The notes: a model not told the origin generated them from the sequence alone. A DNA stretch of 64,000 nt from Patescibacteria group bacterium (GCA_030018585.1 JASEHZ010000001.1:9484-73483), one strand, 5' to 3'. Positions 13,991 through 53,102 are shown, counted from the stretch's first letter. Numbers and translations: made by a program.

Positions 13991-14014
13991 CCCCGCTTGA
14001 CAGCGGGGTTTTTA
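13991..14014. terminator. Hairpin terminator CCCCGCT-TGACA-AGCGGGG + T5 (shared convergent terminator with recR)
   Basis: Perfect 7-bp GC stem with T-run on + strand. Confidence 0.6.
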
Positions 14015-14611
14015 ATTTCTTCTTTCCAAAGCACTATTTAATGTTTCTTCGTCAGCAAATTCAATTTCGCCGCCCGTAGGAATGCCGCGGCCCAGACGGG
14101 TTATTTTTTCTGCAAGATTTTTAAATTCCTGACGAATTATATCAGCGGTAAAATCGCCAAAAGTATTTGGATTTAAAGCAATAATAATTTCTTTTATTTT
14201 TCCGTTCGATTCTTTTATAATCCTGTCTTTCAAATGTTTTAACCGTAATTTTTGAATGGTTTCCAATGCGCCCCGTTCGTTTAATTCACCAAGGATTAAA
14301 TAATGGCCTTTGAAATGTCCGGTTTTTTCAATTGAGATTAAATCGGTTTCTTTTTCAACAATAGCGATAACAGCGCAGTCACGGCTTTTGTTTGAACAGA
14401 TTTCACAAATTTTTTCGCTGCTATTTTTAAGAAAAAAGCATCGTTCGCACCGGTCCAATTCTTTTAAGTTGCTTAGCGATGCAATAAGATTATCAAGGCT
14501 TGCGCGATCAAGGTTGAGTAGATAAAAAACAAGACGAGTAACAAGTCGAGGTCCCAAAGATGGGAGTTTTGAAAAATTATCAATAAATTTTTGAATTGAT
14601 TCTGGGATCAT
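14012..14611 (-). CDS. recR: Recombination protein RecR
   Basis: N-terminal HhH (LPSLGPRLVTRLVFYLL), C4 zinc finger CERCFF...CEICSN, Toprim region; 199 aa. Confidence 0.9.
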   Translation of the reverse strand: MIPESIQKFIDNFSKLPSLGPRLVTRLVFYLLNLDRASLDNLIASLSNLKELDRCERCFFLKNSSEKICEICSNKSRDCAVIAIVEKETDLISIEKTGHFKGHYLILGELNERGALETIQKLRLKHLKDRIIKESNGKIKEIIIALNPNTFGDFTADIIRQEFKNLAEKITRLGRGIPTGGEIEFADEETLNSALERRN

Positions 14612-14735
14612 CCCGTTAGAAACAGGTCGTCTAGGGCGACCGTAAATAAAGCGGCCTTTTATTTAATATTTATGTTTTTTGGCAAATGCTTAATATTCAT
14701 AGATTTCATAATTTGGTTGCTTCTAACGGGATCAT
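14612..14735 (-). repeat. ATG-flanked palindromic leader element, copy 1 (dnaB-recR intergenic)
   Basis: Minus-strand reading ATGATCCCGTTAGAAGCAACC...CCTGTTTCTAACGGG then ATG of recR; shares internal TATGAATATTAAGCATTTnCCAAAAAACATAAATAT with copy 3. Confidence 0.7.
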
Positions 14736-16084
14736 AACGGTTCTTCGGTTGAGTGTTGGGTATCAATACTCCGAAAGCTTACTTTTTCCGGGTCAAAACG
14801 CAATTTTATTGATCCAACAGGTCCGTTTCTGTGTTTGGCAATAATAATTTCCGCGATATTCTGTTCTTCTTCCGGGATATCAATTCTTTCCCTGTCTTTT
14901 CTGTAAATGAAAATCACGACATCAGCGTCCTGTTCTAATGATCCGCTTTCTCGAAGATCGGAAAGGCGAGGTATTTTAACTTCTCTTTTATCAACGTCGC
15001 GGGAAAGCTGGGAAACGGCCAAAACCGGAATATTTAATTCGCGGGCCAGTGCTTTTAATCCTCGGGAAGTTTCTGTGACCTGTTGAACAATATTGTCGCT
15101 ATTTGTCCTAGGGTTAATAAGCTGAATATAGTCAATTATCAAAAGGTCAAGTCCATGTTCAATCTGAAGTCTGCGGGCCATTGATCGCATTTGAAGAATA
15201 TTTGGTGATGGTGTGTCATCAATAAAAAGCGGCGCTTTTGACAATTCTTCAAGAGCTTGCTGGACTAAAGCAAATTCAAGTTCGTCATTTAAACGGCCCG
15301 TACGTAATCGCCACAGCGGAATTTGGGCTTGGCTTGCGATGATTCTATCAATTATTTGTTCCCGGGACATTTCAAGAGAGCAGACGCCCACGATTTTTCC
15401 GTTAATCGCGGCTTGGCGGGCAATGTCGAGGGCAAGCGTTGTTTTGCCAAAAGAAGGTCGTGCGCCAACAATAATAAAATCTGAACGTTGAAGGCCGGAA
15501 AGTAAATTATCGAGTTGAGGGAAAAAAGTCGGGATACCTCTTAAGCCGCCTTTTTCTCCTCGGTGAAGTTTTTCTAGTCTTTCATAGGCTTCAGCGAGTT
15601 CCTCTTTTACTTGGATGAATTTTTGCGGTCTGGAAGTGCCGGCAATACTGAAGATTTTTTGTTCGACATTATCAAGAAGCGTTTCAAAATCGCGGTGATC
15701 AAGGGCTTGTTCGTTGATTTGAGAAGATGCTTCAATAAGATCGCGGCGGACTCTTTTTTCTCTTACAATTTCAGCATAACGATCGACATGGGCGGAGGTC
15801 GGTACTGAAGAAACAAGTTCGGTTAAATAATCTGCGCCGCCAATTTCTTTTAATTGTTTTTTTGATTTTAATTTATGCGAGACTGTTAAAAGGTCGATTG
15901 GTTCGCCTTTTTCAAAAAGTTCTATGGTTGCATCATAGATTTTTTGATGAGCAGGATGATAAAAATCAATTGGCCGTAAACAGTCAGCAACTTTTATAAT
16001 CGCATTTTTATCAAGCATGATAGCGCCCAAGACTGACCGCTCGGCTTCTAAGTCTTGCGGCGGCAATTTTATGTTTTTAGCCAT
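14732..16084 (-). CDS. dnaB: Replicative DNA helicase DnaB
   Basis: N-terminal DnaB domain (ERSVLGAIMLD), Walker A GARPSFGKTT, 450 aa. Confidence 0.9.
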   Translation of the reverse strand: MAKNIKLPPQDLEAERSVLGAIMLDKNAIIKVADCLRPIDFYHPAHQKIYDATIELFEKGEPIDLLTVSHKLKSKKQLKEIGGADYLTELVSSVPTSAHVDRYAEIVREKRVRRDLIEASSQINEQALDHRDFETLLDNVEQKIFSIAGTSRPQKFIQVKEELAEAYERLEKLHRGEKGGLRGIPTFFPQLDNLLSGLQRSDFIIVGARPSFGKTTLALDIARQAAINGKIVGVCSLEMSREQIIDRIIASQAQIPLWRLRTGRLNDELEFALVQQALEELSKAPLFIDDTPSPNILQMRSMARRLQIEHGLDLLIIDYIQLINPRTNSDNIVQQVTETSRGLKALARELNIPVLAVSQLSRDVDKREVKIPRLSDLRESGSLEQDADVVIFIYRKDRERIDIPEEEQNIAEIIIAKHRNGPVGSIKLRFDPEKVSFRSIDTQHSTEEPL

Positions 16085-17563: not shown

Positions 17564-18483
17564 CCTCTTTTTCTAAAGAACGCTGCTACGCCTAATAGAA
17601 TTGCAGAAATAACAAAAAAGTAAATCCAGAAATCAGCTGGCTCTTTTATAAAAGTCGCTTCTACTTGAGGTTGAAGAGCGATGGTTGCGTAAAGAACAAG
17701 CGGAAAAGTAAGAAAGCCGAGAATGGAAAATCTTCGGATGATTTCCGAGGTTTTAAATTCAAAAAGCTGGGAAACAGTTTGGCTGTAAGATTCAACAGTC
17801 GCTTTCAGATTTTCAAGCAAAAGGTGGATCTTAAGAAAGTCTCCTTCTAAATCGGCAAAATAAATTGCGGCATGTTTGCCCCAAAAATTAACGCCAATGT
17901 CAGAAAGAGAAGTAAGTGTTGATTTTTGCGGTACGGCAATAATAGCAAAATCAAGAAGGTCGCGTTTGATTGACGAAATGTCCTCCAATAATTTTCGGTC
18001 TTGGCGTTTAAATATTTGGTCGCCGACAAAGTTTACTTTCCGTTCAACGTGTTTTAATTGTCTTAAAGAGAAATCATTTACCTCTTCTAGAATGTAGTAG
18101 ACAATTTGTGCGGCGTTGTTGATTGTGTTTTGATATTTTTTTTCGAGATCCCGCTCAAATTGGTTAATTGGCTCGATTTCTTCGTAAGTGACGGTAATTA
18201 ATATTTCTTTAGTGGCGACAAAATCTATTTCTGCTCGGCGAGAGGTTTGTTCTAAATTGTTGTAAATTGGCAAGTGATAAACCAAAAAAAGATAATCGTC
18301 GTAAGTTTCAATCTTACTTCGGTCCGACGGGCTTAAAAGTTCGTCAAGAATTAAGGGGTGGATATTAAATTCGTTTTTTAATTCATTAACGTCGTTTTTG
18401 TTGGGACGAGTTAAGTGAATCCATTTTAAGTTATTTTTTATTTTTGTTTCGGTCATATTTTTAATATTTTTTAACGGCTCCAA
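17554..18483 (-). CDS. CorA-like divalent cation transporter (divergent; no canonical GMN)
   Basis: 309 aa, soluble N-domain plus two C-terminal TM helices in CorA arrangement; YGMN replaced. Confidence 0.45.
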   Translation of the reverse strand: MEPLKNIKNMTETKIKNNLKWIHLTRPNKNDVNELKNEFNIHPLILDELLSPSDRSKIETYDDYLFLVYHLPIYNNLEQTSRRAEIDFVATKEILITVTYEEIEPINQFERDLEKKYQNTINNAAQIVYYILEEVNDFSLRQLKHVERKVNFVGDQIFKRQDRKLLEDISSIKRDLLDFAIIAVPQKSTLTSLSDIGVNFWGKHAAIYFADLEGDFLKIHLLLENLKATVESYSQTVSQLFEFKTSEIIRRFSILGFLTFPLVLYATIALQPQVEATFIKEPADFWIYFFVISAILLGVAAFFRKRGWL

Positions 18484-51640: not shown

Positions 51641-51778
51641 TATTTTTCCTTGTACGAATATTTATTATTTAAAGATTCTGCATTTAGTATGAACTTTCAA
51701 AATTATGTTTGTTTGTCAAGTTTTTATTTTTTATTTATTGCACGCTTCACTCGATAAGCTATAATTAAATTAATTGTT

Positions 51779-51902
51779 ATGAATCCCGTTAGAGACAACA
51801 ATGCCATGATTTTCAAAACAAATCTTGTTATATATCAGAAAAAGTCGATAGCAGTTAAAACGGCTGATTTACGGTCGCCTTGGGCGACCTGTCTCTAACG
51901 GG
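51779..51902 (+). repeat. ATG-flanked palindromic leader element, copy 4
   Basis: ATGAATCCCGTTAGAGACAAC...inner hairpin GGTCGCC-TTG-GGCGACC-TGTCTCTAACGGG then ATG of eno; arms show compensatory AAGC/GCTT to AGAC/GTCT change. Confidence 0.7.
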
Positions 51903-53102
51903 ATGAAAATAAAAGACATAATTTTACGTGAGGTTTTTGATTCTCGAGGTGAATCTGTGTTGGAAGTGGGCATCGAAGATTATTTGGGGCATAAATTTAT
52001 TGCTCAAAATCCTTATGGTGCAAGCCGGGGCAGTAATGAAGCCTCAGTTTTTTCCTGTGAGCGGGCAAAAAAGATTTTAAATGGCGGCTTGGCGAGAGAA
52101 ATTATTAAAAAAAATTTTGGATCAGTTAGAAATTTTGATCATATTCTTTTTAATTTTGACGGCACGGCTCGGAAAGAAAAAATTGGCGGGAATTTAGCGC
52201 TCGGTCTTTCGGTTGCATTTGCGCGTGGGCTGGCTTATGAACGGGGGCAATTATTATGGGAGCTTTTAAACGAGGAATTTTTTTTCAGTCGGCCCTTTCG
52301 CAGTTATCCTTTAATTTTTTCTAATTTAATTAATGGCGGTGCTCACGCTGATAATAATCTTGATTTTCAGGAATATATAGTGATTGTGAAAATCACCGGT
52401 TCGGTTAAAGATACTATAGAAAAACTTATTGATTTTTATAAAAAATTAGGCATTCTTCTTAAGAAAAGGTTTAGCAAAAAAGAATTGGTTATTGGCGATG
52501 AAGGCGGTTATTCTTTGATGTTTGAAAATAATTTTGAACCAATTGATATTTTAGGCAATCTTATTGAAAAAGAGCGGCTTATGAGTAAGTATGGTTTGGG
52601 ATTGGATGCGGCGGCTTCGAATTTTTATAGCAACAGCCGTTACTCTTTTGAGGGCAAAAGGATTTCTAAAAAAGATCTGTACGAAAAATACCTTGAATAT
52701 TTTAGAAAATCCAAGTTTTTGTTTTCAATTGAAGATCCTTTTAATGAACGCGACATTCAGGATTTTAAAAATTTGAGCATTGAACTTTCTGACAAACTTA
52801 TAATTGGTGACGATTTGACGACCACCAACTCGGCAGCGATTTTGGCGCTTGCGAAGGAAAAAGCAATTAACGGTGTTATTATCAAACCTAATCAAATTGG
52901 CTCCGTGACGGAAAGCTGCGAAGCAATAAAAGTTGCTCATGAAAATGGCGTAAAATGTATTATTTCTCACCGATCAGGAGAAACCGAAGATAATTTTATT
53001 ATTAATCTTGCTCGAGCAAGCGGCGCCGAAGGCGTAAAAATTGGCGCTCCAGTTCGCGAAAGACTTTCTAAATTCAACGAGCTAATAAGAACTTATAATT
53101 AA
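51903..53102 (+). CDS. eno: Enolase (divergent, short)
   Basis: N-terminal DSRGESVLEV pattern and SHRSGETED signature; 399 aa. Confidence 0.75.
   Translation: MKIKDIILREVFDSRGESVLEVGIEDYLGHKFIAQNPYGASRGSNEASVFSCERAKKILNGGLAREIIKKNFGSVRNFDHILFNFDGTARKEKIGGNLALGLSVAFARGLAYERGQLLWELLNEEFFFSRPFRSYPLIFSNLINGGAHADNNLDFQEYIVIVKITGSVKDTIEKLIDFYKKLGILLKKRFSKKELVIGDEGGYSLMFENNFEPIDILGNLIEKERLMSKYGLGLDAAASNFYSNSRYSFEGKRISKKDLYEKYLEYFRKSKFLFSIEDPFNERDIQDFKNLSIELSDKLIIGDDLTTTNSAAILALAKEKAINGVIIKPNQIGSVTESCEAIKVAHENGVKCIISHRSGETEDNFIINLARASGAEGVKIGAPVRERLSKFNELIRTYN

Follow-up and report, generated by a model that had tools for sequence, protein, structure and literature searches.

In a 64,000-nucleotide (nt) stretch of DNA from a Patescibacteria group bacterium (GCA_030018585.1 JASEHZ010000001.1:9484-73483; the window, from whose start all positions are counted), a 121-bp segment with inverted ends sits exactly in the stop/start junction between dnaB and recR. 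Where did this segment come from, and how do ribosomes reach recR behind it? We conclude that the segment, here called copy c1, is probably a decayed, non-autonomous member of a hairpin-ended mobile family found across Patescibacteria, similar in kind to MITEs (miniature transposable elements with inverted repeats). The family itself is likely to be a mobile element resembling insertion sequences (IS) and MITEs, with a GIY-YIG nuclease as its partner and with a transposition chemistry that we infer.

On the minus strand the 3′ end of dnaB reads CCG TTA TGA, and its TGA (14734-14732) overlaps an ATG (14735-14733), the overlap described in an earlier reading of the window (the original prediction). 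The sequence of the element opens with ATGATCCCGTTAGAAGC and closes with GTTTCTAACGGGATGATCCCAG, in which the ATG at 14611-14609 is the recR start; past the 3′ end of c1 it reads TGATCCCAGAA, and the terminal A of c1 together with the following TG makes the recR start codon. Direct reading also confirmed that ATGATCCC is present at both ends of c1. The retained left ATG now starts a 9-codon mini-ORF (open reading frame; 14735-14706, minus strand).

The original prediction had proposed inspecting the dnaB-recR junction in related genomes, and we compared filled and empty junctions after taking the element and one copy of the repeat out in silico. The exact RecR protein of the window is not on record; among its homologues, the nearest (83% identity) comes from a sister species (GCA_030017555.1, locus L119), where the junction is uninterrupted: dnaB and recR overlap directly through GTGA, without the element (GAAGAACCACTGTGATTCCAGAATC; GAAGAACCACTGTGATTCCAGAATCAATTC). 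To either side, the sister sequence runs collinear with that of the window at ~85% identity, which one extra A left by the in silico cut does not affect. This supports the proposed insertion into an ancestral dnaB-ATGA-recR overlap, with GTGA in place of ATGA in the sister species. More remote relatives carry an unrelated AT-rich spacer of 95-100 nt between the two genes. In element-free relatives recR starts with ATGATCCCGG, ATGATTCCGG or GTGATTCCAG; the TCCC within ATGATCCC is therefore native to recR codons 2-3, and only TGA/ATGA is duplicated. TCCC doubles as the first bases of c1 and as recR codons 2-3, and the 8-bp target duplication originally postulated has to be shortened to one of 3-5 bp (TGA here, usually TGAA).

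The copy that precedes enolase (c4) was analysed in the same way. Its site is empty both in the sister species (L254, TATAATTAAATTAAATGAAAATAAAAG) and in another relative (L255, AAAAAGGATGAAAATAAAAG), and the filled site in the window reads TTATGAA, then the element, then TGAAAATAAAAG. The predicted element-less junctions read CCGTTATGATCCCAGAATC and TTGTTATGAAAATAAAAGAC. Since the orthologous dnaB-recR and enolase sites are uninterrupted, both window copies are insertions. Left of the enolase insertion (window 51755-51783 versus L254 9975-10003) the window has five extra bases, TTGTT, between a TATAAT box and the retained ATG, which gives a -10-to-ATG spacing of 13 nt as compared with 8 nt at the empty sister site.

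A 10-nt core of the ends, with one mismatch allowed, matches eight times in the window, and the matches form four inverted pairs (c1 to c4, Table 1); the gapped pattern is expected 0 times randomly. Each copy ends in CG(G/A)GA, followed directly by the TG of a long-ORF start codon. The left flanks are ATGA (c1) or ATGAA (c2-c4) and the right flanks ATGA (c1, c2, c4) or ATGG (c3), so the earlier count of three copies with ATGA at both ends and a fourth with ATGG at its 3′ end holds. With 146 intergenic TG[AG]A sites in the window versus 26 at gene starts, the finding of 4/4 copies at starts (p ~5e-4) indicates a placement beyond chance. Copy c2 is inverted relative to c1, c3 and c4, with its subterminal hairpin on the 5′ side. 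Inside c3 a 29-codon ORF terminates at the TAA of the 3′ arm, and c4, whose arms are of the GAGAC/GTCTC variant also found in the GIY-YIG-coding form described below, is open from the left ATG to the 3′-arm TAA.

Terminal inverted repeats of 14 nt are common to the four window copies and to the 87 short copies identified overall. They pair across the whole element (RNA fold z = -4.6 to -8.9), and the terminal stem is also predicted for single-stranded DNA on either strand. Between subfamilies the arms covary (AAGC, AGAT, AGAC, AAAT, AAGT). A second short hairpin adjoins one arm; its pairing is conserved, including G-C to A-U covariation, and its sequence differs between copies. In c1 this second hairpin (14625-14641, minus strand) together with the following TGTTTCT has an intrinsic-terminator-like score and lies between dnaB and recR. 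Were it functional as a terminator, recR would be partly uncoupled from dnaB transcription.

Beyond the window, species-representative genomes were queried with one 15-nt element end, which returned at least 118 loci, single 15-mer matches being expected randomly in that much DNA. Requiring an inverted partner end 85-170 bp from the 15-nt match left 87 short copies among the matches listed, the window's four included; nearly all are from metagenome-assembled genomes of Patescibacteria, and many classes are represented. The family ends are the 14-nt inverted repeats TCCCGTTAGAAGC...GCTTCTAACGGGA, which close each strand into a hairpin. The element is best defined as TCCCGTTAGA...TCTAACGGGA, with a duplication of TG plus 1-3 nt. 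Of 79 gene-adjacent short copies, 60 are flanked by perfectly duplicated bases (4 bp in 46 copies, 3 bp in 10 and 5 bp in 4), and in the remainder the duplication is about one base off. Across 87 short and 63 long members the bases left of TCCCG covary with those after the host ATG; duplicated bases read TGAA, TGGA, TGAG, TGCG, TGTA or TGCAA, for example, and always begin with TG.

The insertion point is immediately after the first base of the start codon, and in 76/87 short copies a downstream ORF of at least 90 codons begins exactly at the rebuilt ATG (A + TG). The start-site excess across the whole family is far above that of the window. At four loci (L130, L013, L024 and L102) the left start codon is GTG or TTG while the right one is ATG, which shows that the rebuilt ATG takes its A from the element; with A as its last base, A + TG makes an ATG for the host gene whatever its old start codon. 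The empty sites and the covarying flanks favour the original suggestion of a mobile element that targets start codons with a short ATG(A) duplication, and the bias towards start codons may arise from targeting (for instance of melted DNA at transcription starts) or from selection.

Shorter copies (65-85 bp) and nested and tandem copies exist as well. Short copies lie inside longer ones at L014 3211-3371, L030 7264-7565, L054 511-818 and L073 864-998, and head-to-tail tandems with only an ATGA-type repeat between them occur at L005 7672/7795, L045 6502/6619 and L069 1007/1147; elements thus insert at the ATG rebuilt by an earlier copy. The AT-rich middle of canonical short copies is flanked by semi-conserved GGGA and GCAG motifs, and the small ORFs of short copies from different classes resemble one another (M..I.KI/FNNI(T/S)K(H/Y)....TATCF*; for example L105 3116-3237, L090 3767-3888 and L075 395-514). 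The interior of short copies may carry a function of its own.

The family also has a coding form. The complete element is ~279 bp long, and its sole gene encodes a 94-amino-acid (aa) single-domain GIY-YIG nuclease. Two genome loci with 279-bp elements encode a GIY-YIG protein of 85-94 aa between ends of the c4 variant (GAGAC/GTCTC), the long copies at L066 and L099 share contigs with short copies, and L127 and L130 are further protein-coding copies with the family ends. Both 14-nt inverted ends lie within the nuclease coding sequence, where they specify the N-terminus MNPVRD and the C-terminus FLSLTG. At L066 the ORF starts at the left, duplicated host ATG (ATG AAT CCC GTT AGA GAC, MNPVRD) and ends in CTG TCT CTA ACG GGA TGA (LSLTG*), the TGA overlapping the rebuilt host ATG. 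The 4-bp duplication puts the old start codon in frame with the nuclease gene, and this codon keeps its place at the left end, next to its promoter or to the upstream stop that overlaps it. Genomic contexts of long copies confirmed that stop and start of the nuclease gene and the downstream gene overlap by 4 nt; at L130 the long copy sits in a GTGA gene junction and also overlaps the upstream gene, as c1 does.

A protein search returned 2296 relatives of the nuclease, of which the best 120 were examined. Nearly all of these are 93-95 aa long with MNPVRD and RFLSLTG termini, or 86 aa long when read from an internal Met. The Pfam GIY-YIG match (PF01541) covers residues 10-77, and the invariant columns (Tyr, Tyr-x-Gly, Arg, His, Glu, Asn) are of catalytic type. 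Among solved structures, the UPF0213 proteins 1zg2 and 1ywl come nearest, with SLX1 next. A nuclease gene with 54% identity (L026 1267-1515) lies between different inverted ends, ACCCTGTTAAA...TTTAACAGGGT; its ATG follows the left end, and the site is not a host start codon. That a diverged nuclease comes with correspondingly diverged ends suggests that protein and ends evolve together.

A metagenome scan for end pairs spaced 235-265 nt yielded at least 120 loci, and the long copies of about 275 bp in metagenomes number at least 121. Those with T..A ends make up 63 of the 121: TGAA is duplicated in 31, TGA in 5 and TGGA in 3, 52 are followed by an ORF of at least 60 codons at the rebuilt ATG, and 7/40 lie in an upstream stop overlap. 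Long copies that are 94-97% identical have unrelated flanks. In a second subfamily of 43 long copies (ACCCCG...CGGGGT) the ends read ACCCCGTTAGAGAT...ATCTCTAACGGGGT, and the inverted symmetry extends outward (TTTAC/GTGAA or CTTGC/GCAAG); several members share conserved flanks (among loci L134-L253, for example L150 1847-2121, L168 2438-2714 and L192 977-1253). In IMG/VR viral contigs, three gapped end-pair patterns found no copy, the gap of the first pattern being too short.

How the host gene is still translated may be read from the frames of the element and from the leaders of its hosts. In short copies, the frame that ends at the arm's TAA (TGC TTC TAA CGGG ATG) is open over a median of 21.5 codons, versus 9 and 14 in the other frames, and in 15/70 short copies, c4 included, it is open end to end from the left ATG. 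At the 15th position, just inside the arms, AAGC-type copies show an asymmetry in the same direction in 56 cases and reversed in 3. A -10-like TAnnnT word peaks 6-7 nt before the left start codon (40/113 element-bearing genes versus 14.6% of 507 control ORFs on the same contigs), a spacing that would place the transcription start on the A of the ATG. Shine-Dalgarno-like words are depleted 5-9 nt before the left start codon; together with the -10 spacing, this indicates that the hosts are mostly leaderless-type or stop/start-coupled genes. A Shine-Dalgarno sequence bridged across the hairpin (G-rich bases 0-3 nt before the left ATG) was dropped as an explanation in favour of a promoter discriminator once the -10 peak at 6-7 nt emerged. 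The terminal stem would bring the two ATGs side by side and would be melted when a ribosome comes to the left ATG or the dnaB stop, and ribosomes would get to the host ATG through termination-reinitiation.

Within the window, a TATAAT, exact or nearly so, precedes the start codon of many genes by 7-13 nt, and these genes lack a Shine-Dalgarno sequence (for example 18471-19385, 19485, 24520, 29244, 37785, 39630, 40883 and 62785); in other genes AAGGA(G) stands at 5-8 nt. Genes that are leaderless or have a very short leader seem to coexist in this genome with Shine-Dalgarno-led ones.

For the movement itself, Ssn nucleases and IS200/IS605 serve as models: we propose that the nuclease would recognise the element folded as single-stranded DNA and cut it at the base of its stem, and that host repair or ligation would complete the move. 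Short copies such as c1-c4 would be mobilised in trans. As the nuclease is the only protein of the family, under this proposal it would also be its transposase, for which we see roughly even chances.

Other explanations of the same features were weighed against this proposal. According to the first, the short copies would be ordinary MITEs moved by a conventional DDE-type transposase encoded elsewhere, and the GIY-YIG gene would be only cargo or a homing-endonuclease gene that by chance had settled between ends of this kind. A short target duplication next to terminal inverted repeats is what classically marks DDE enzymes, no GIY-YIG nuclease is known to transpose DNA, and the window has no nuclease copy. 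Several results nonetheless make this explanation unlikely. The 94-aa GIY-YIG ORF is the only coding unit between ends among the genome and metagenome loci listed (at least 118 and at least 120, respectively), and no end pair at IS-like spacing around a transposase gene was noticed among these matches. The ends are inside the nuclease coding sequence and are kept as MNPVRD and FLSLTG in nearly all of the best 120 of 2296 homologues, and the ends around the diverged nuclease at L026 are diverged as well, which suggests joint evolution.

Alternatively, the enzyme could cut empty start-codon sites as part of a homing-endonuclease system, with the element copied in by recombinational repair from a filled allele that had been taken up and with short copies being remnants that decayed in place. 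The GIY-YIG fold is typical of homing endonucleases, reliance on DNA uptake is commonly assumed for Patescibacteria, and given autonomous copies recur at the same locus across many samples (21 similar places). Homing, however, gives no target duplication and stays out of unrelated genes, and here dozens of unrelated genes carry site-specific duplications and near-identical copies have unrelated flanks. Moreover, the short form has a conserved interior of its own, common to several classes, which argues that it spreads as such. We therefore consider homing quite improbable. An I-TevI/Seg-type homing endonuclease was ruled out, as the protein consists of the catalytic domain only, duplications are present and the TIGR01453 score is 21-22 bits against a cut-off of 56.

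As a third possibility, a structured RNA would have been recruited ahead of particular genes as a cis-regulatory leader of the host, either for translational control or to maintain the coupling of dnaB and recR. We regard this as very improbable. In its favour are the strong predicted RNA fold, the fixed position relative to the ATG, the mostly fixed polarity and a small ORF that stops 4 nt short of the ATG; against it, the element is missing from the orthologous sites of the sister species, target duplications are present, the downstream genes are unrelated (recR, enolase, ATPase, surface protein), one window copy is inverted, protein-coding relatives have the same ends, and Rfam returned only tRNAs in the window at gathering score and nothing better than E = 1.2 on the element in permissive searches over the copies. 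The recruited leader of the original prediction is thus excluded as an origin; it may survive as a side effect, in that the element is built so that translation still reaches the host ATG, and a secondary regulatory use may exist.

Returning to the mobile element with a GIY-YIG partner, a number of observations weigh against it. GIY-YIG enzymes act on DNA by hydrolysis, strand transfer not being a known activity of theirs, and the transposition intermediate, the nuclease activity and the mobilisation in trans are putative here. A duplication of variable length (3, 4 or 5 bp) is unusual for a transposase, and 43/121 long copies have different ends without a recognisable duplication. The window holds no nuclease-coding copy, and its four copies are diverged (79% identity between c1 and c3, 57-69% in the other pairs, mostly from the ends), and the family may have been active in this genome long ago. 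Some internal motifs of the canonical short form (CGCGGTCGC, GGGA, GCAG) are missing from the nuclease gene, which means that this form is not a simple deletion derivative. Selection acting after insertion, and not targeting, could account for part of the bias towards start codons. Finally, a two-hexamer promoter scan found nothing upstream of c1, c3 or c4; the result for c3 and c4 counts against the proposal, and only the statistics of the -10 spacing speak for the leaderless reading.

Among published systems, the nearest is Ssn/NTS, in which a GIY-YIG single-stranded DNA nuclease is paired with a hairpin repeat (Chenal et al. 2025, Nat Commun, PMC11893778). Ssn is a site-specific single-domain GIY-YIG protein of ~94 aa that binds a folded hairpin repeat (NTS/SRM) and cuts only single-stranded DNA, beside the repeat. 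Its authors call the architecture 'identical to' insertion sequences and raise IS-like mobility only as a hypothesis; the paper has nothing on target duplications, empty sites, insertion at start codons, ends embedded in an ORF, or Patescibacteria. Both systems have a single-domain nuclease of ~94 aa whose gene lies between inverted or hairpin repeats that also occur as many solo copies. The Ssn repeats, however, are local hairpins of 20-50 nt, whereas the ends of the present element pair with each other over its full length. The SRM motif (HGTCWYN(0-2)YYVSBRHN(0-5)WNVSBRGN(0-2)RNCYNB) matches in 0/87 short copies, in 0/121 long copies and nowhere in the window, while the NTS positive control matches. 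Ssn belongs to the CDD family cd10448, and the present nuclease scores best against UPF0213 and SLX1 structures.

IS200/IS605 with their PATEs, and REP/RAYT, are likewise small, with folded single-stranded ends; a single small enzyme of nuclease type serves their many non-autonomous palindromic derivatives, and they too insert beside a short specific sequence. They differ in having an HUH Y1 transposase, subterminal hairpins and no target duplication, as opposed to the GIY-YIG protein, terminal inverted repeats and 3-5 bp duplication of this family; membership of IS200/IS605 (and PATE) was ruled out by the inverted ends, the duplication and the lack of an HUH protein.

Bacterial MITEs such as the Correia elements of Neisseria, the Rickettsia palindromic elements and ERIC are 100-150 bp long, with terminal inverted repeats, a short duplication, many copies, co-transcription and long hairpins. 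Insertion of the Rickettsia palindromic elements preserves a reading frame. The partners of known bacterial MITEs are of DDE type, or none is known, and we know of no bacterial MITE reported to sit at a start codon and rebuild it. The present family shares with MITEs the terminal inverted repeats, a duplication that varies with the site, empty orthologous sites and a longer coding element with the same ends. It departs from them in that its partner is not a recognised transposase (DDE, HUH, serine or tyrosine recombinase), its only ORF being the GIY-YIG gene that spans the element end to end.

The free-standing seg/mob GIY-YIG homing endonuclease genes of T-even phages (PMC2988022) are also selfish and wedged between host genes. 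Since they and the present family both rely on host transcription and on start/stop overlaps, little polarity is to be expected from either. The phage enzymes differ in having 200+ aa with DNA-binding domains and in homing into homologous sites, and their genes have no inverted ends, duplication or short derivatives. Integron attC sites were also ruled out: the core motifs are reversed (GTTAGAA...TTCTAAC on both strands, against RYYYAAC at the 5′ and GTTRRRY at the 3′ side).

Some further observations concern neighbouring or related loci. Other small GIY-YIG genes of Patescibacteria sit between a partial duplicate of a tRNA 5′ half and the intact tRNA (L097 3478-3714, L109 5589-5786, L110 2993-3223), which suggests tRNA-gene insertion as a second insertion style of this GIY-YIG protein family. 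The prs-enolase spacer of the sister species (L254 9800-9975) contains two other long palindromes that are absent from the window, ACTACAACTTCAG...CTGAAGTTGTAGT and CCACACCTTCC...GGAAGGTGTGG, which may be other hairpin elements. In remoter Jorgensenbacteria-like relatives (L120 2400-2500, L122 1660-1778) the dnaB-recR spacer is made of short direct repeats (ATTTTCAAT, GGAAATT), and a 23S_rRNA_IVP / bAvd-like gene lies downstream of recR.

Table 1. Features of the dnaB-recR junction and element copies in the window
Feature	Position	Strand	Remarks
dnaB, upstream host gene	14732-16084	-	orthologues carry PF00772/PF03796
recR, downstream host gene	14012-14611	-	identity from homologue search
Copy c1, element proper (TCCCGTTAGAAGCA...TGTTTCTAACGGGA)	14611-14731	-	121 bp, non-autonomous; its last base, 14611, supplies the A of the recR ATG; missing at the orthologous junction of L119
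Left junction ATGA	14732-14735	-	dnaB stop TGA (14734-14732) is the left duplication copy; overlaps the retained ancestral ATG (14735-14733)
Right junction ATGA	14608-14611	-	A 14611 is the end base of the element; TGA 14610-14608 is the right duplication copy
5′ arm of terminal inverted repeat, TCCCGTTAGAAGCA	14718-14731	-	
3′ arm of terminal inverted repeat, TGTTTCTAACGGGA	14611-14624	-	includes a TAA 4 nt ahead of the host ATG
Subterminal hairpin GGTCG-CCCTAGA-CGACC	14625-14641	-	adjoins the 3′ arm; pairing kept among copies, sequence not
Internal small ORF, product MKSMNIKHLPKNINIK*	14659-14709	-	ATG overlaps the stop of the first mini-ORF (TTATGA); related to the small ORF of c3
Copy c2	20008-20127	+	precedes 619-aa ORF; TGAA duplicated at 20004-20007 and 20128-20131
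Copy c3	25114-25239	+	precedes 623-aa ATPase ORF; left TGAA, right TGGA
Copy c4	51784-51903	+	precedes enolase; TGAA duplicated; empty site in L254 and L255

We found no description of start-codon-targeting GIY-YIG elements or of these Patescibacteria repeats in a literature search outside which most subscription journals lay. It seems to us an evenly balanced matter whether this is the first IS-like family with a single-domain GIY-YIG (Ssn-like) nuclease as its only protein, moving as a folded single strand, landing on the start codons of leaderless or coupled genes, borrowing host initiation and passing the ribosome on to the rebuilt start. If the GIY-YIG protein drives the movement, it would add a mechanistic class beside the DDE, HUH, serine, tyrosine and Cas1 transposases. 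The flanking of single-domain GIY-YIG genes by repeats in many phyla, for which the Ssn paper (PMC11893778) left the reason open, would then be explained as well, and such movement would give the Ssn-type hairpin repeat systems of other bacteria an origin in mobile elements. With its defined hairpin partner and its 4-bp target, such a small nuclease could also serve as a tool. As short copies create false upstream ATGs and mini-ORFs, they matter for annotation, and in Patescibacteria the element marks genes that are probably leaderless or translationally coupled. Collectively, the family would represent a compact, near-harmless selfish gene that captures a start codon, is translated from it and gives the host its ATG back through a stop/start overlap.

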